Positions 35,624-46,051 of a stretch of DNA of 64,000 nt are shown piece after piece. A program made the translations under genes and the position numbers. The stretch's first letter is position 1. Each line of letters begins with the position of its first letter. Where the stretch lies: positions 4,640,001 through 4,704,000 of the forward strand of contig OZ244170.1 in the NCBI GenBank assembly GCA_965216565.1, in the 5' to 3' direction. The notes under the pieces were generated by a model. The model did not search any database. It was given only the letters and a program-made list of their open reading frames with translations, and was not told where the DNA came from. The stretch comes from Bythopirellula sp. GTDB taxonomy: Bacteria; Planctomycetota; Planctomycetia; Pirellulales; Lacipirellulaceae.

Positions 35624-36587
35624 TTAAGTGTTGTTGGTTTCGCTTAGTAGTTCGCGGATAGTTCAAACATGATCGGCCAATCCGTGTGCCATCGCGGGCG
35701 TTTTCTTTTTCAGCGACTTGTGGGGCTTGCAGTAGTTGTAGGCCACAAAGAACAGGGCCAGCGCTGCCCGATGGTTTTCCCATTTCTTGCTGATTGCGTA
35801 GGTGACACGGGCCATACGCTTTGTATAGTTGCGGATCGTGGCGTTCAGCCTCTCGCAATGCGAAGTGCAGATTTCCGATTCGTGGATATGTCCGCTGATT
35901 CGCTTCTTTCGCATTCATATTATACCGGGAACTGAGAAATGGAACCGGTCTTCGTCTACTGTCCTGTTTCCGAACGACTCGATTACTTGTCCATAGTCCG
36001 TTCGGCGGAATAGATGCCTACCAACGGCAGGTTCGTAAGCGTGGAATCCGTCGGTTGATAGTTTGAATCGTCCAGCCACAGCGTAACCGAGCTTCCGACA
36101 GAATTGGTCTGTATGCTCTTGGGTCCACTTGCCGAAGTGAAAGCAGACTAGAAGCTTGCTGGCAGGGTCCATTGCCGTGTAGCAATAGGCATCGCCTACA
36201 GGCTTGTCTTGATAGCCCAGGCGGATTGCTGTCTTTTTCTTGCAATGGACATAGCCCCAAATTTCGTCGGCCTGGATTGAATTGACTTCTAGGTTGCGAT
36301 GATTCTCTTGTAAAAACTTCTCGCAACGCTCGCCAACCAGAACCATTAGGTCGATGATCGTATGGGCTTTGACTTTGGTAAGGCGGGACACGGTTGAGAT
36401 ACTTAGCCCCTCTAGCAGCATTTCGATAATCTGCTCGGCTTTTTCTAGTCCGATACGCATTCCGTCGAATAGGCTGGTCGATTCCGTAAAGCATTTGCCG
36501 CAATATTTGCATCGAAAGCGAGGTGTCCCGGCCTTGGTTGTGCCGTGCTTCTTGTAATTTTCGTGCTGACAAATAGCTAGTATACAT
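35624..36587 (-). pseudogene. IS1-family DDE transposase with two in-frame TGA stops
   Basis: One frame gives CQH...RFRCKYCGKCF zinc ribbon, HTH, ADEIWGYV, STDGFHAY, ERLNATIR, SKKWENH, DHV*TIREL; TGA at 35915-35917 and 35663-35665; the ATG at 36587 is out of frame. Confidence 0.85.
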
Positions 36588-37109: not shown

Positions 37110-38003
37110 ATGGCGCGATCCAAGAACAAAGGGAAGAAGAAAAAGTCGCGTAAACGCAAACCAACCAAGAAGAAACAGAAGCCCAGCGAAAAGAATCCTG
37201 TAGCCGAACGGACGCCCCTCGCAGATTCCCCCAATGCCAATCAGGCAACTCAAGAGTCCAATCCAAGTGATAAGCGGGCCTACCCACAATACTACTTTGT
37301 ACCAGGGGTAACTAGATTTACTTGGCCTCGCTTTAGTTGGCGAGCATGGCGCAAGTTTTTCGCCGTTGTCGAATTGTTCTTCGCTGGCGCTGTGGCCTAC
37401 TATGCGATGATTCAAGCGGGAGTCATGGAGGATACTCTTGACCAGAACTCTAGGTTTCTGGATGAAGCTACTAAGACCAGAAAAGCCACTGAGAGCCAAG
37501 CCAACGTTGAAATCGCTCGTTCCTTGGGTCGAATTGCAGTCACTGAATGCAGCATTGAGAGGCTTGTGGACGGGCAACCAGTTAAAATTACATTCACGAT
37601 AAGCAATACGGGAGAACGTGAGGTCTTTGTGGGAAAGATCAATGCGGCCGCCGTGTATTTTAGCGGCAATAGGCCGCAGGTCACCAGTGAATTGAATAAG
37701 ATTCGTAGAAACAAAAAAACCACCTACGAGCGACACTATGGGCTTCTTGTCTCCGGTAAAAGCATCACTGTTCCAATTGCGCAAGCCAAGAAAATCCATC
37801 AGGGAACGATTGATCGAATCACTGACAAAGAGACTAGCCTCTATCTCCTTGGATGCGTCACATTCCGCGACACTAACGGAAGGCATCATACTGACGAAGA
37901 ATTCGTTATTTTCCGCTATGATCCGGATTCTGGCATGATGGTTGCCGAGGAACTCCCCGCACATATTGATAGTGATAATTCAAAGAGCCGGAGCAAGAAG
38001 TAG
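37110..38003 (+). CDS. IS passenger: hypothetical single-TM protein
   Basis: Lys-rich N-terminus, TM helix, beta-rich C-terminal domain; ends just inside the right TIR. Confidence 0.65.
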   Translation: MARSKNKGKKKKSRKRKPTKKKQKPSEKNPVAERTPLADSPNANQATQESNPSDKRAYPQYYFVPGVTRFTWPRFSWRAWRKFFAVVELFFAGAVAYYAMIQAGVMEDTLDQNSRFLDEATKTRKATESQANVEIARSLGRIAVTECSIERLVDGQPVKITFTISNTGEREVFVGKINAAAVYFSGNRPQVTSELNKIRRNKKTTYERHYGLLVSGKSITVPIAQAKKIHQGTIDRITDKETSLYLLGCVTFRDTNGRHHTDEEFVIFRYDPDSGMMVAEELPAHIDSDNSKSRSKK

Positions 38004-38646: not shown

Positions 38647-38701
38647 TCGCGGTGACTTATCTGCCTCGAATTCATCGGCTGGTTCAATTAATGGACGGGC
38701 C
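38606..38701 (+). repeat. Block A (96 bp), copy 1
   Basis: Two mismatches to 39922-40017. Confidence 0.9.
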
Positions 38702-38856
38702 GGGTGCCATGCCCACGCTTGTTGGTTTTCTGAGTCGTGACGACACGCCAACACACATAGCCAGGCTGCCTGCTCCGAGGTGTTGCGTGGGCATGTTGGA
38801 GAATCAGCAAGTGCGCTAAGACCTTCAGTTGCTTCGGCGTGGCCATGGCACCCGGC
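38699..38856 (+). repeat. Block B (158 bp, terminal IR gccgggtgccatg), copy 1
   Basis: Two mismatches to 39766-39923. Confidence 0.9.
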
Positions 38857-38916
38857 TTATTGTCCGGGGGTATTAATAGGCGTTGCCAGGGGCTGTCTGG
38901 TGATTTGGGACAGAAG

Positions 38917-39519
38917 TTAGATCCGCTTTCGCAATCGGCAGCTCATGCCCAATATTCCGAGGGTGACGAGGATAAAGGTATTGGGCTCGGGACTGGCATG
39001 CACCGAGATCGTGTCGACGGAGCTTCTGTACGAAAGCGAACAGCTAGGGCATATTGAGGCATGGATTTGCGCGAGCTCATCGAAATCATTTGCGTCATAA
39101 GATGTTGGAACATCCGGCGTGTCGTATATGTTGGCAGTCGACCTCAGGGATAAGAACCCAGTTTCACCGGGGGCGAAAAAGAAATCAAACTCTACACCGT
39201 CTGCATAGATGCCAGACCAAACATTAAATACGTGAACTTCATACGAACGGCCCTCGATCGTTACATCGAAAAAGCTCCCATCATAATTTGCAGCTGCTGG
39301 CGTAGAAGATACGACAGATGCGGTGGGATCGACAGTGAACGACCCACTATAGGTGTCGCCGACAGACTTGCCAGGAAAAAGTGCACCCAAAGCGTTGTCC
39401 TGAACTACGCCACTGAAGTTGAATGTCAGCGGCGCAGCATTGACGGAAGCTGCAATGGCGATCACCGACAGAATGCTAAGGCATGCGTGAAAGCTCAGTT
39501 GTATGACTGTTGAAATCAT
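38917..39519 (-). CDS. PEP-CTERM sorting domain protein
   Basis: Signal peptide; C-terminal SPEPNT, TM helix, RLRKR; GAAGGA RBS. Confidence 0.85.
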   Translation of the reverse strand: MISTVIQLSFHACLSILSVIAIAASVNAAPLTFNFSGVVQDNALGALFPGKSVGDTYSGSFTVDPTASVVSSTPAAANYDGSFFDVTIEGRSYEVHVFNVWSGIYADGVEFDFFFAPGETGFLSLRSTANIYDTPDVPTSYDANDFDELAQIHASICPSCSLSYRSSVDTISVHASPEPNTFILVTLGILGMSCRLRKRI

Positions 39520-39765
39520 GTAGCTTTCCTTCTGGTTATGGATTGTCCAATCACAGGAAGATACTCAATACTCAGACCTCAGAAGTTGCTTGAATTAGCT
39601 AAATAGATCGTCGGAAACAATGGCAATATCCACTAGAGATGGATTCATCCATGACTACTTGCGTAAATCGGCTCAATGATGATCCAGATAGTTAAGTCAG
39701 GGAACACCACTAGCTGCCAGTGCTGGCAATTTTATGGCCAAGTCTAGCGTCTTGACTCAACGTCA

Positions 39766-40017
39766 GCCGGGTGCCATGCCCACGCTTGTTGGTTTTCTGA
39801 GTCGTGACGACACGCCAACACACATAGCCACGCTGCCTGCTCCGAGGTGTTGCGTGGGCATGTTGGAGAATCAGCAAGTGCGCCAAGACCTTCAGTTGCT
39901 TCGGCGTGGCCATGGCACCCGGCGATCAACCCTGGGCTACGGTATGTAACGCCTTCGGCGTATCGCGGTGACTTATCTGCCTCGAATTCATCGGCTGGTT
40001 CGATTAAGGGACGGGCC
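39766..40017 (+). repeat. Block B copy 2 followed by block A copy 2
   Basis: B 39766-39923, A 39922-40017. Confidence 0.9.
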
Positions 40018-41366: not shown

Positions 41367-42161
41367 ATGGCGCAGACCATTCTCGAAGAGATCGTCGCCA
41401 CCAAGCGCCAAGAAGTAGCCGCTGCTAAGAGTCGCACTCCTCAGCAAGACTTGCAGTCCGCCCTGGCGGGTGCACCGCCGGTGCGAAATTTCTTTGCAGC
41501 ACTCGACGCTGAGGATTCTATTCAGCTGATTGCTGAAGTGAAGAAGGCCAGTCCTTCGGCAGGGATCATCCGAGCTGATTTTGATCCCGTCTCCATTGCC
41601 AAGATCTACGAGTCGCATGGGGCCGCCTGCATCAGTTGCTTAACTGATGAGTCGTACTTTCAAGGCAGCTTGGAGTACCTCAAGCAAATCCGTCAGCAAG
41701 TATCGATCCCAGTACTTCGCAAAGACTTTATCATTGATAGCTATCAGTTGCTCGAAGCGCGAGTCGCTGGTGCCGATGCCGTCCTGCTAATTGCCGAGTG
41801 TCTGGACGATTGCAATCTGCGAGCGCTGCACAACGAAGCCATCGAACTAGGCATGACGCCACTAGTCGAATTCTACGAGCCGGCAAACCTGGAGCGCGTG
41901 TTAGCAGCGGGCGCGAGGCTTATTGGCGTGAACAACCGCAACCTGCACACGTTCGAGGTCGATCTCGATCATACCTTGCGTATGAAAGAGATCATTCCCG
42001 ACGAGTGCCTGCTGGTGGGCGAGAGCGGAATCAAAACCCATGCGGACGTCACTCGACTGCAGCAAGCAGGGGTCGACGCCATCCTGGTGGGCGAAACGCT
42101 CATGCGTCAGTCCGATATCGGACAGGCAGTCGACACACTGCTGGGACGCAGTGCGACTTAG
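41367..42161 (+). CDS. trpC: Indole-3-glycerol phosphate synthase
   Basis: IAEVKKASPS, LRKDF, GVNNRNL, ESGI. Confidence 0.97.
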   Translation: MAQTILEEIVATKRQEVAAAKSRTPQQDLQSALAGAPPVRNFFAALDAEDSIQLIAEVKKASPSAGIIRADFDPVSIAKIYESHGAACISCLTDESYFQGSLEYLKQIRQQVSIPVLRKDFIIDSYQLLEARVAGADAVLLIAECLDDCNLRALHNEAIELGMTPLVEFYEPANLERVLAAGARLIGVNNRNLHTFEVDLDHTLRMKEIIPDECLLVGESGIKTHADVTRLQQAGVDAILVGETLMRQSDIGQAVDTLLGRSAT

Positions 42162-42925
42162 CTGTCCTGCGAATTCCGGAGTCTTCGTCTTGTTACTAGC
42201 AAGGAGCCGGCCGACAGCATTGCCAAGCCAACTGTGGATGGCTCAGGTATGAGCATCGTTCCCGAGATGGTCATAGCACCCGAGGCGAGTACTGCTTCCA
42301 ACGGATTGCCGGCGGTCATTGGCAACGTAGCCGTGTACGATACGACGATCGGCTGATTGGGATCGAACGCAAGCCCACCGGGTAGATTCTGGCTATCCAG
42401 CGACGAGGCAGTTCCAGTGATCAGGAAGACATTATCTGTAATGGCCACGTTGAGCTGCTCGAAGTTCAGCTTCAAGAAGCGGCCAGCATCATCGAACCAA
42501 TGAAATCCGAAGTCGTCGGTATTGGCACCTACCGAAGCGAAGTTCAGGCCCTTGGTCAACTGACCGACGCCATCCAAGGAAAAATCGCCCCACATGTCGT
42601 TCATAAATGGCGAGCCTGTGATGGGAGTCATATCGAGTTCGAAGACGGCACCCTGCAGAGGATCTGCTTCGTTTGCATCCATATTGCCACCCGGTTTGCC
42701 AGTCATATCGTAAATGGCACCGCCGGCCTGGTTGTTGTAGATCATGTCCATATCGGACAGGATGATGTTGATGGTTCCTGCGGAAGCATGCGAACTGAGC
42801 ATGGCCCCCAGAACGAAGGCTAGGAGAGTGAGCATCACTCGACCTGCGCCATAGGGGCGTGACATCCAATGAGGCACGTTCGACGTGCAATCTCGTGGGC
42901 TACAAACTTGTGTGTGGCTAAACAT
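42158..42925 (-). CDS. PEP-CTERM sorting domain protein
   Basis: Signal peptide; C-terminal IPEPST, TM helix, RRRLR. Confidence 0.88.
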   Translation of the reverse strand: MFSHTQVCSPRDCTSNVPHWMSRPYGAGRVMLTLLAFVLGAMLSSHASAGTINIILSDMDMIYNNQAGGAIYDMTGKPGGNMDANEADPLQGAVFELDMTPITGSPFMNDMWGDFSLDGVGQLTKGLNFASVGANTDDFGFHWFDDAGRFLKLNFEQLNVAITDNVFLITGTASSLDSQNLPGGLAFDPNQPIVVSYTATLPMTAGNPLEAVLASGAMTISGTMLIPEPSTVGLAMLSAGSLLVTRRRLRNSQDS

Positions 42926-43111
42926 GGTTGGTTTCGCTCTCGGTATGAATAGTTACTAGTAAAAAGCCCTCGGATTAAGCGACTCATGCCCCTAGGGGCT
43001 TTCGTCTTCCTTGCTTGTCTTTCGGCAGTACTTCGAAATTTCGTCTGAGTGCCTGCCATTCTTGGAAAGCTAACTCAAGCGGTTTCACGGTCTCTTATTG
43101 TTTGCAGCGTG

Positions 43112-43327
43112 TTACCAACTCATTCGCTTATTGGCTCGTTGGTGCATGCCGCCTATTTTTTTGGATTTACTTTTGGTCGATTTGACTTTTCTTTTCGTAT
43201 TGGCTCGCGAGCGAGTTGCACTTGGTCGCGGAGCTCGATTTTGCCGACGCGGCGCTATCGAGTAAGCCATGGAATAATCAGTGTCTCCATCAAGCAATTC
43301 AGGTTCTTTTTCTTTTCTGTTGCGCAT
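43112..43327 (-). CDS. Small basic protein B (71 aa)
   Basis: AGGA RBS; DYS motif; ends GGMHQRANKRMSW; paralog of 44330-44509. Confidence 0.7.
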   Translation of the reverse strand: MRNRKEKEPELLDGDTDYSMAYSIAPRRQNRAPRPSATRSRANTKRKVKSTKSKSKKIGGMHQRANKRMSW

Positions 43328-43979
43328 CGGTAGAAATCCTGCTATGGGTTAAGGGGGTTATCCGGTCGCCGCCTCTGGCCATTGATTCACCGCTTTGGGG
43401 AGGTGATTCTTGAGTAGGTGGTGGCATACTTGCCATCAACATTTGGATCGAGTTGGAAGTGGATTGATGTTCCAGTCCTGAGCTAGCGGTACGCGCTACT
43501 GCCTTGCGCGCCTCTTCAAACACCCAGTTGATCTTGCGAGGGTTGGTCACCTGGGGCAGGTAGGACCACGCGCCTAGACCTCGAGCCCAGATTTCTTCGC
43601 TCGAGTCTTCGCTGTTCCCACAAAGGATGAGAAGCGAATCGGAGATATCGCAGACCTTTGCCGATGCTTCGCGCATCTTCTGATAGTTGACTTGATTTGG
43701 CTCCGGCAAATCGACAATCGTTAGTGGCACCTTCATGCGGAAGAGGTGCTTAATGAACTTGCCTGCGTTGTTGCAAACGATTGCATCCCACGCCTCGTTC
43801 TCAGCGGCAGACTGCAAACCCTCGGCTCGGGAGTCGTTCCAGGAATAGATCAGGCAGCGCAGTAGGCCTGGTGGAGCTAACATCCGCATCGGTGCACCAG
43901 GTTTCCCGACAGGTTCTGTCGGCTGAGGCACCGCTTGCGCGTGTTCTGTAACAGTGGAATTCGGAGAGGCTGACGCCAC
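43299..43979 (-). CDS. Stand-alone atypical receiver-like protein
   Basis: GGAG RBS with GTG start; TIVDLP, LLILCG, ARGLGAWSYLP follow the REC pattern; acidic pocket and Lys missing. Confidence 0.6.
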   Translation of the reverse strand: MASASPNSTVTEHAQAVPQPTEPVGKPGAPMRMLAPPGLLRCLIYSWNDSRAEGLQSAAENEAWDAIVCNNAGKFIKHLFRMKVPLTIVDLPEPNQVNYQKMREASAKVCDISDSLLILCGNSEDSSEEIWARGLGAWSYLPQVTNPRKINWVFEEARKAVARTASSGLEHQSTSNSIQMLMASMPPPTQESPPQSGESMARGGDRITPLTHSRISTDAQQKRKRT

Positions 43980-44329
43980 AGTGTTAGCTCCAAGTAGGTG
44001 TGTTATCGATGGTGTGGTCGATCTTCAGACATGTGTTTTCCCCACGGCCTGTTGATACTTATGTAAAACGTGCCCAAGCAGGAACGGGGTTAGGCGCAAC
44101 ATGCGCTCAACCTCACCCAGGCGCAGTACTAGGAGTTCAGCACTCCGAGCGCATGCGACGGGCAATTGTCCTACAGCTTGCTCTAAATTGTTCCCTCGGC
44201 GCACTCATGCTTCGCGCCGGTCCGTTGTTCAGTTCAGCAATTGTGCAAAGCACAATCAGCAGCGCAGCTAAAGATTGGTCGGACCTCAGCAGCAACGTAT
44301 GGCTGCAGACGATCCTGGCAATCGCGGCG

Positions 44330-44509
44330 CTACCAAGTCATCTTGCGTCGGCGACGCTTGTGGATTCCATTCACAGATTGCGGACCCTTGCCACGCTTCC
44401 GGCCGTGCGTAGGACGCCGCGACTTCGAAGCTTTGATAGGAGTGGATCGGCGGAATGTGTCGTTGCTGTAGTCAGCTTCCATAGCTTCATAAGATTGGGA
44501 ATGACTCAT
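44330..44509 (-). CDS. Small basic protein A (59 aa, not in ORF track)
   Basis: AAGGAG RBS; hand translation MSHSQSYEAMEADYSNDTFRRSTPIKASKSRRPTHGRKRGKGPQSVNGIHKRRRRKMTW. Confidence 0.75.
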   Translation of the reverse strand: MSHSQSYEAMEADYSNDTFRRSTPIKASKSRRPTHGRKRGKGPQSVNGIHKRRRRKMTW

Positions 44510-44662
44510 TGACTAGGTCTCCTTAGACGAATCACAGTTGCTCTAGCACGTGGGCGCGGGGCCAACATCACGCAGCTAGTTGTTCATGCCGTCAGCAATA
44601 AGCTGACGGGGAGTGAAGCGTTGCCGGTCGTTTTCCAGTTCGCTTCGACAGCAACTGTTAAC

Positions 44663-44677
44663 GCGATTCGCGTGCCA
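44663..44677 (-). promoter_or_regulatory. Sigma-54 -24/-12 promoter
   Basis: Minus strand TGGCACGCGAATCGC, GG-N10-GC. Confidence 0.7.
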
Positions 44678-44762
44678 GTTCCGGAAAGTGTTGCTAAGAA
44701 ACGCTCAAGTCCTTACGGCTAAGACGTTTGCAGCCAGCGCTTGGAGAAACGCAAAGAATGAG

Positions 44763-44871
44763 TTGCATCACCAAACTAGTGATGCAATTTGCCGTGAAAT
44801 TCACTTCGCATTAGTCGGCTAGATCAGAATGGCAGATTCACTACCTTGGTGATCCATCACCATTTGGGTGA
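44763..44871. promoter_or_regulatory. Three TCAC-N7-GTGA palindromes, putative enhancer sites
   Basis: 44768-44782 (extended ttgcatcac-N7-gtgatgcaa), 44838-44852, 44857-44871. Confidence 0.65.
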
Positions 44872-45079
44872 GGGCTGGGAAACCGCTCTCAAAAGCCCTT
44901 ATTTGGCCGATTTCGGGAAGGTCGCTAGCATCGTCGTCGGACAGGGAGCAATGGCGGAGACGTCTAGTGGCAAGGTGCTGAGAGGGCCAGGAACGGCTAC
45001 CGATTGAACCCGTTCAGGCAGCACGAAAGAGGGGCCCTACTATGCCAAGATAGCACCGCGTTGCATTACCCAGAGTGGG

Positions 45080-46051
45080 TTATTCTTGGTCGTTTTCGAT
45101 TTGAGCTAGCAGCCTAGTCATCGTGTTGGGGTGAACTCCCAGCAGTTCGGCCGCTTTGCCCTTGTGACCATCAGTTGTTTTCAGCGCTTGCTGCACCGCA
45201 GCCTGACGCAGACGGCCGAGGTCGGTGAAGGGCAGCCGCGATTCTCTGCCATCGTTAATATCTAGCCCTGGAAGCATAGGTTCGCATTCCAAGACGTAAC
45301 TCTGCTCGATGACGTATCCAAGTTGTCGTAGGTTGCCAGGCCAATGATATTCGCAGAACTTGCGCAGTATTTCGGCGTCGGGTTGCCAGACTTCTTGCTC
45401 ATACTGGGCTGCATACTTGCGTGAGAAAAAGTCTATAAAACTAGGGATATCCTCAGCTCGCTCGCGAAGCGGAGGCATGTGCAATTCAACCAAATTGAGT
45501 CGGTAAAACAGGTCCTCGCGGAAGCGCCCTTCTTCCACATCGCGAATTAAATTGCGATTGGTTGCGGCACAAACTTGCACATCGATCTTCACCGGATGGG
45601 CAGCGCCTACGGGTGTGACTTCGCCTTCCTGCAGAACTCGCAGCAGTTTTGGTTGCAATTCCAAAGGCATATCGCCGACTTCGTCGAGGAATACTAGGCC
45701 CTCGTGAGCCGATCGGAAGACACCTAAACTCTTGCCTGCCGCACCTGTAAACGCTCCGCGTTCGTGGCCGAATAGCTGGCTCTCAGCGAGTGTGGCGGTG
45801 AGTGCCGCGCAATTGACCGGGACAAATGGCTTAGAATGCCTAGGTCCCAAACGATGAAGAAGCCGCGCCCATACTTCCTTGCCCGTACCGGTTTCGCCGG
45901 TAATTAGCACGGTACATTCCACTTGAGCAGCACGCTCAGCGTGGTGCGCGATCTTGTTAATTGACGGATCGCGTCCTATGAGTAGGCTCGCTGGATCCTC
46001 AGGCGGCAGGGAAGCCACCGAGTCTAGCGAAACCGCTATAGTAGATGCCAT
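45080..46051 (-). CDS. Sigma-54-dependent activator without N-terminal regulatory domain
   Basis: GETGTGKE, GAFTGA, FLDEVG, WPGNLRQL, Fis-type HTH; about 20 aa precede the AAA+ domain. Confidence 0.95.
   Translation of the reverse strand: MASTIAVSLDSVASLPPEDPASLLIGRDPSINKIAHHAERAAQVECTVLITGETGTGKEVWARLLHRLGPRHSKPFVPVNCAALTATLAESQLFGHERGAFTGAAGKSLGVFRSAHEGLVFLDEVGDMPLELQPKLLRVLQEGEVTPVGAAHPVKIDVQVCAATNRNLIRDVEEGRFREDLFYRLNLVELHMPPLRERAEDIPSFIDFFSRKYAAQYEQEVWQPDAEILRKFCEYHWPGNLRQLGYVIEQSYVLECEPMLPGLDINDGRESRLPFTDLGRLRQAAVQQALKTTDGHKGKAAELLGVHPNTMTRLLAQIENDQE

Follow-up and report, generated by a model that had tools for sequence, protein, structure and literature searches.

How is a sigma-54 activator to be controlled when it has no sensor domain of its own, and what does it switch on? 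This question is raised by a locus of Bythopirellula sp. (assembly GCA_965216565.1, contig OZ244170.1, positions 4,640,001 to 4,704,000 of the forward strand), where a sensor-less bacterial enhancer-binding protein (bEBP) is encoded ahead of an array of enhancer sites, a sigma-54 promoter and genes for two small basic proteins and a stand-alone pseudo-receiver. The best overall explanation, which we hold tentatively and at a little under an even chance, is that this is a conserved sigma-54 operon whose pseudo-receiver would serve, in trans, as the activator's missing regulatory domain.

An earlier note, made from the sequence alone, had placed here a sensor-less bEBP, three TCAC-N7-GTGA palindromes, a -24/-12 promoter, microprotein A, a receiver, microprotein B, and a PEP-CTERM gene, and all of these are where it put them. 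Unless called genomic, coordinates are positions in the whole 64,000-nt stretch that was analysed (the window). The module lies entirely on the minus strand, in the order given by that note, and contigs from two runs of one sample, possibly its source, agree with the assembly with no difference. The parts, with protein lengths in amino acids (aa), are as follows.

45080..46051, minus strand: sensor-less sigma-54 activator (bEBP), 323 aa, AAA+ plus helix-turn-helix (HTH), GAFTGA; single-copy orthologue
44857..44871, no strand: enhancer site 1, TCAC-N7-GTGA, 194 bp upstream of the -24 element
44838..44852, no strand: enhancer site 2, TCAC-N7-GTGA, 175 bp upstream of the -24 element
44768..44782, no strand: enhancer site 3, TCAC-N7-GTGA, 105 bp upstream of the -24 element
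44703..44715, minus strand: possible IHF site, weak, two mismatches against the consensus
44663..44677, minus strand: sigma-54 -24/-12 promoter, TGGCAC-N5-TCGC, predicted +1 at 44651
44330..44509, minus strand: microprotein A, 59 aa, predicted disordered
43980..44329, minus strand: 350-nt spacer between A and the receiver, unconserved, of ordinary folding
43299..43979, minus strand: stand-alone pseudo-receiver, 226 aa, conserved domain 43946-43464
43112..43327, minus strand: microprotein B, 71 aa, a paralogue of A with the C-terminal motif in common
42158..42925, minus strand: PEP-CTERM-type exported protein, start codon uncertain, a variable passenger gene

A conserved operon and its activator

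Conservation was followed first in the family Lacipirellulaceae (the closest named relatives), where searches of 120 genomes detected the receiver in 115 and microprotein A in 114 (E < 1e-5; four more matches near E 0.3 were discounted). Layout was counted over 80 loci centred on microprotein A, with the sufficiently long loci as denominators. The receiver follows A in 78/78 loci and B is present in 76/78; an enhancer site precedes A in 77/79 and the strict promoter pattern is found in 64/79, against 0/79 in a coding control. Promoter, enhancer geometry, A, receiver, and B are kept together across the family, which bears out the grouping proposed in the earlier note. The circuit cannot, though, be called "self-contained" as it was there: the activator lies within ~3 kb in 46/71 loci, so that it is detached in about one-third of them, and a second likely target is found elsewhere in the genome.

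Outside the family, the parts of the module occur in variant orders across ~17 families of the order Pirellulales, the commonest being enhancer, promoter, receiver, microprotein, and, in some loci, a PEP-CTERM gene. Elsewhere the microprotein comes before the activator (family f30), three copies surround the receiver (f15), or the PEP-CTERM gene comes first (f25). Genomes of f30 have two activator copies each, with enhancer sites and a microprotein gene directly before one and after another, a position that suggests autoregulation.

Among 201 genomes of the order, the receiver is held by 89, an activator orthologue by 84, and the microprotein by 76, and 75 of these 76 also hold the receiver. 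Activator and receiver occur together in 76, neither in 104, the activator only in eight, and the receiver only in 13; four large families (13-15 genomes each) have none of activator, receiver, or microprotein. The 13 receiver-only genomes comprise four with a broken or cut activator gene, two fragmented assemblies, and seven of family f4. In three genomes the activator gene is in pieces, through frameshift or assembly error. When 161 genomes of the class were searched, the same nine held both activator and receiver, and the pair was found in 0 of the 122 outside Pirellulales; a draw of 250 from the phylum gave a single weak match, in a long frame. No description of this combination, which the earlier note did not recognise either, was found in the full-text literature, most subscription papers lying outside the search.

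The activator itself consists of a sigma-54 interaction (AAA+) domain, which starts at residue 24 and carries the Walker motifs and GAFTGA, followed by an HTH at 285-313; by these features it belongs to the group 4 (sensor-less) bEBPs. It has no N-terminal regulatory domain, its 43 orthologues are 321-361 aa long, and its score falls short of the cut-offs of all the named NCBIfam activators listed. Both rpoN and an exosortase are present in the genome.

Which sites does it read? All 33 activator orthologues compared share the recognition helix GHK..A..LG.H.NT.TR, which is absent from the 15 other bEBPs of the genome, and the nearest natural solved HTH is the C-terminal domain of NtrC (a weak match, E 0.07). 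The enhancer consensus in family alignments is TCACCA-N3-TGGTGA; the NtrC box TGCACCAnnnTGGTGCA, as given in a passage of PMC8743547, differs from it in the flanks only and has the core in common. The three sites at 44871, 44852, and 44782 are the sole triple among 102 TCAC-N7-GTGA sites in the 5.2-Mb genome, which has one further pair (genomic 569146/569324). Across the regions in which a promoter was found (41/60), 81 of 84 enhancer sites stand 103-107, 174-179, or 193-196 bp away or ~11 bp further, giving six distance classes; fixed distances one helical turn apart are as expected for looping onto a fixed face of the helix. IHF-like sites, present in 19/56 relatives where 4.2 would be expected, are enriched yet weak.

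Family f4 provides a natural comparison, since it lacks both the activator and, at this promoter, the enhancer site. No activator orthologue was found in the four f4 genomes tested (best E 1e-91, against 1e-146 or less for orthologues), the promoter dyad is a different one with the same core, CCA-N3-TGG (by eye), and the microprotein is also kept in 3/6 loci read. This operon has likely undergone a regulon handover. Given the recognition helix, the NtrC-box-like core, and the joint absence of activator and site in f4, we consider it very probable, as far as sequence can tell, that the activator reads TCACCA-N3-TGGTGA through its NtrC-like helix and opens both the promoter in the window and the promoter of a further microprotein:

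genomic 568633-568848, minus strand: microprotein D, 72 aa, with the same kind of C-terminus

The microprotein D promoter is of the sigma-54 type and has two enhancer sites upstream, at 189 and 367 bp, and a GNAT acetyltransferase gene (PF13480) comes after D. Promoter, site, and peptide are kept in six other genomes of the genus, and a D-like peptide with the site occurs in three genomes of two other genera. The activator thus has D as a likely further target. When the genome was scanned with matrices built from the promoter in the window, this locus scored 88.5 and the next 27.6; the "regulon of one" that this implies was dropped, as the scan was over-fitted and missed the D promoter. A second genome scan also missed it, and the regulon may therefore be larger still. 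The exact enhancer-plus-promoter pattern has 27 matches over the 201 genomes, ~17 at known loci and some in families without the activator, and is uninformative about further targets.

The pseudo-receiver and the microproteins

What kind of receiver is encoded here, and can it be phosphorylated? The model has a (beta/alpha)5 fold with a 25-residue fifth helix (predicted local distance difference test, pLDDT, 87), and its best structural matches by VIA-align include NtrX (Z 18.1, root-mean-square deviation 2.3, 130 aligned) and NtrC4 (Z 17.4). Phosphorylatable receivers carry an acidic metal pair, a beta4 Thr/Ser, and a beta5 Lys. In this family (residues numbered from 43946) the fold and the phospho-acceptor position, Asp79, are present, the latter aligned to KdpE and kept in 62/64 receivers, but the rest of that signature is not: the beta1 acidic pair varies among Ser, Ala, and Asp across the 64, the beta4 Thr/Ser is replaced by Cys (Cys109) in 57/64, and Pro-Gly (Pro131-Gly132) stands in place of the beta5 Lys.

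The kept Asp position is what would be expected if the protein were a single-domain response regulator that a distant kinase phosphorylates, giving an ordinary two-component output from an unusual sequence. We regard this as quite improbable, given the degenerate acidic pair, beta4, and beta5 positions, the weak match of Pfam Response_reg to 3/47 members, and an operon in the window in which no kinase gene was seen; the conserved Asp may be structural.

On alpha4-beta5, E118, W120, R122, G125, W127, and Y129 are nearly invariant and point to a protein-binding face. The receiver stands alone throughout the matches seen, the best 150 of 925 all being 118-262 aa long. Its overlap with microprotein B, to which the earlier note drew attention, is real in this strain (29 nt) but was found in only 1 of 69 relatives. 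It arises from a strain-specific receiver tail of ~55 aa: in this strain the invariant Glu is followed by 98 residues, where the median is 47.

Microprotein A has an acidic N-terminal third and a basic remainder (net charge ~+10), is predicted disordered (predicted template-modelling score, pTM, 0.13), and ends in an invariant KxPxSxNGxHxRRxxKxxW-stop. Within its final 19 residues, ten positions never vary over 61 rows from 60 genomes, the stop is preceded immediately by Trp in 61/61 rows, and synonymous variation occurs at every invariant codon; selection therefore acts on the peptide. The C-terminal motif relates A to B (HHalign 95.7%), B often ending in Arg, not Trp. No Pfam or NCBIfam family includes A, the PDB gave a single irrelevant match, and the Atlas gave only hypothetical Planctomycetota clusters; nor did the microproteins match any ribosomal or nucleoid protein. 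The family has at least 754 matching sequence clusters, the displayed names of which are all "hypothetical." Among strains in culture, A is carried by Bythopirellula polymerisocia Pla144, Lacipirellula limnantheis I41, and Adhaeretor mobilis HG15A2. In one genus (g37; 7/7 genomes) and one more genome of that family, a conserved linker joins the peptide in frame to a PEP-CTERM protein at its signal peptide; that protein has an FGE-sulfatase (sulfatase-modifying-factor)-like domain, and three such fusions have no internal Met.

That conservation is centred on the final 19 codons, and that a Trp precedes every stop of A, could also mean that these are cis-acting leader or arrest peptides, with ribosome stalling at the conserved C-terminus controlling the next gene. 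Copies do precede varied genes (receiver, PEP-CTERM, activator, acetyltransferase) across spacers of 100-500 nt, and the in-frame fusion with a downstream gene in g37 would suit such a role. We nevertheless think it improbable: in 18/91 loci (by eye) the gene beyond the final copy is convergent with it, so that the peptides are not always upstream of a co-oriented gene and a diffusible product is favoured; the tandem copies of f15 have nothing to control; the frequent Arg ending of B breaks the pattern; and the spacers conserve neither structure nor sequence.

On this last point the earlier note, which had described a "structured spacer," was not borne out. The spacer in the window folds no better than expected (z -0.32; 38/100 shuffles fold equally well), has no Rfam match, and found no match by blastn among 59 other spacers. 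Over 60 spacers z averages -1.3 and is under -2 in 16, and sequence is shared only among close kin. A structured non-coding RNA was rejected on these grounds, there being neither conserved sequence or structure nor folding beyond that of shuffles. Two alternative spacer open reading frames (ORFs), 44204-44025 and 44295-44137, had no family match and no paralogue.

On the reading that we take up instead, the microproteins would be disordered, diffusible products of the operon, and its constant output, a part not played by the PEP-CTERM protein. Their C-terminal motif may dock on a protein, for which the neighbouring receiver is the most likely candidate; we put this whole reading forward as a possibility with rather more doubt than conviction.

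The passenger gene, the neighbourhood and a second module

The PEP-CTERM gene, listed as part of the module in the earlier note, is better described as a variable passenger: it is present in 65/72 family loci and is not one orthologue, differing from locus to locus, and it is dispensable in many lineages. The ORF in the window holds the PEP motif, a hydrophobic stretch, and an Arg cluster, and scores just under the cut-offs (PF07589, 16.2 against 20.7; TIGR02595, 15.6 against 16). Two or three genes separate PEP-CTERM genes of the module from the sigma-54 promoter and enhancer, and the module's enhancer was not found before the other PEP-CTERM genes of the genome. The gene may be an exchangeable surface-protein payload.

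Another PEP-CTERM-type gene (38917-39519, minus strand, 200 aa) is flanked by two copies of a repeated element (~38650-38900 and 39700-40000) with near-identical ORF translations. Nearby are a transposase-like ORF remnant (35915-36460, minus strand) and an unassigned 297-aa membrane protein (37110-38003, plus strand) upstream of rplM-rpsI-trpC.

Is the plan of this module repeated? One further locus resembles it:

genomic 3279961-3283666, minus strand: second module, with sensor-less activator, sigma-54 promoter, receiver, microprotein C, and two PEP-CTERM genes

The plan is the same, with an activator of a different clade and a differently degenerate receiver, which has Asp-to-Asn at the phospho-site. 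The activator loop reads GAFTDS in this genome and GAFTGA in relatives. The second module adjoins a divergent gene resembling a polysaccharide chain-length determinant (by eye) and apparent exopolysaccharide genes. An activator of the sensor-less type precedes the second-module receiver in at least 12 of the 24 loci listed; in ~6/30 this receiver is followed by a similar basic peptide. A common origin of the two modules was considered and is not supported: each activator clade is itself supported (100/100 and 100/96), but their sisterhood is not (91/78).

Sigma-54 promoters are enriched at chaperone genes in Planctomycetia, according to passages of PMC12316311 that do not mention the module. 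A conserved dyad, TGCCA-N3-TGGCA, lies between a divergent pair of sigma-54 promoters, of which one faces a groEL paralogue. Some 300 nt behind the other promoter, a ribosome-binding site followed by an ATG and an immediate stop is kept in 7/7 genomes of the genus; this start-stop element has no Rfam match, and is possibly a small RNA or a start-stop minigene.

Control of the activator

The module can be set beside several well-known systems. In two of them a separate protein acts on a sensor-less bEBP, PspA on PspF and HrpV on HrpR/HrpS; NtrC1 and NtrC4 receivers damp their activator in cis, and PspA does so in trans. Control by protein binding in trans is the mode recorded for sensor-less bEBPs in Table 1 of PMC7175178, and our activator, like PspF and HrpR/HrpS (group 4) as that source describes them, is AAA+ plus HTH only. 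As with PspF-PspA, a candidate partner is encoded in the operon that the activator likely drives. It differs from PspF in score, however (239.7 against an equivalog cut-off of 443.55 bits). PspA (PF04012) is not in the operon and was not found in the genome, which is 94% complete (a control search was positive in 9/14); the candidate partners here, unlike PspA or HrpV, are a pseudo-receiver and disordered basic microproteins.

Similarly, a sigma-54 promoter and dyad enhancer ahead of a PEP-CTERM gene, with an exosortase in the genome, recall PrsK-PrsR, at least as an excerpt of PMC1569441 presents it; unlike PrsR, the activator here has no receiver, comes with no kinase, and scores 268 against the TIGR02915 cut-off of 502.6 bits. 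The NtrC-like helix, the NtrC-box-like site, and the receiver fold with its long fifth helix are shared with NtrC, NtrC1, NtrC4, and NtrX. The activator nevertheless scores 291.8 against the ntrC cut-off of 558.6 bits and has no N-terminal receiver, and the targets include no nitrogen genes; in contrast to the NtrC type, the receiver has a gene of its own, which lies downstream of the target promoter, and it lacks phosphorylation residues.

We can now return to the opening question. The sensor-less activator would probably bind the three enhancer sites and switch on both microproteins, A and B, and the pseudo-receiver between them; the pseudo-receiver would then supply in trans the restraint that receivers give bEBPs in cis. 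By analogy with those systems, a protein that keeps the fold, the long fifth helix, and the alpha4-beta5 face, and not the phosphorylation chemistry, may damp the activator and so produce a self-limiting pulse, a reading that we judge to have slightly less than half a chance.

Several observations weigh against this reading. In seven f4 genomes the receiver is retained, but its sigma-54 promoter has another kind of site and the activator orthologue was undetected in the four tested; the receiver must therefore have a use apart from the activator. Conversely, the activator occurs with no receiver in eight genomes, and the four of these that were checked (90-99% complete) are also without the microprotein. 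Microprotein D stands alone, with no receiver. The receiver's top structural matches (NtrX, NtrC4, DgcR, and HupR, Z 17-18) are tied with ordinary receivers and so do not single out those of bEBPs. No receiver-activator fusion was found among 8000 longer candidates (a weak search) or the best 150 of 925 matches, which makes the "split gene" an analogy and not a history. Finally, co-occurrence counts among kin are not independent evidence. We keep the feedback reading below even chances because the parts can evidently be uncoupled, as they are in f4 and in the genomes with the activator only.

These same genomes are what one would expect if the activator were constitutive and set by its own abundance, while receiver and microproteins were effectors elsewhere, with no feedback at all. 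An arginine-rich half would, on this account, bind RNA, DNA, or ribosomes in a dormancy or life-stage programme. The net charge of ~+10 and three microprotein paralogues under one enhancer type would fit, as would f4, which keeps receiver and peptide without the activator, and the f30 arrangement of microprotein gene and enhancer directly before the activator gene, which suggests transcriptional control. We hold it to be less likely than the feedback reading, as the invariant N-G-x-H...W motif suits a specific pocket better than a charge interaction, all seven g37 genomes fuse the peptide ahead of a signal peptide, and ribosomal and nucleoid proteins gave no match.

If the pseudo-receiver does act on the activator, a bolder and more speculative version can be framed, to which we would give a fairly low chance. 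The module would be an undescribed sigma-54 switch in which the receiver, removed from the activator and independent of phosphorylation, is placed under the activator's control, and the microproteins, a multi-copy, arginine-rich family with one short C-terminal motif, are the signal, binding the receiver and so releasing the activator (partner switching). The result would be a kinase-free toggle for a surface-remodelling change of life stage, on a plan present at least twice per genome.

To our knowledge, gene regulation in planctomycetes is largely unstudied. The locus offers a complete and testable sigma-54 circuit (activator, exact sites, promoter, and targets) that is near-universal in one family, together with two protein families that have no annotation, the stand-alone pseudo-receiver and the microproteins. 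If it is true that the receiver controls the activator in trans, this would be a new mode beside the few known trans regulators of sensor-less activators.

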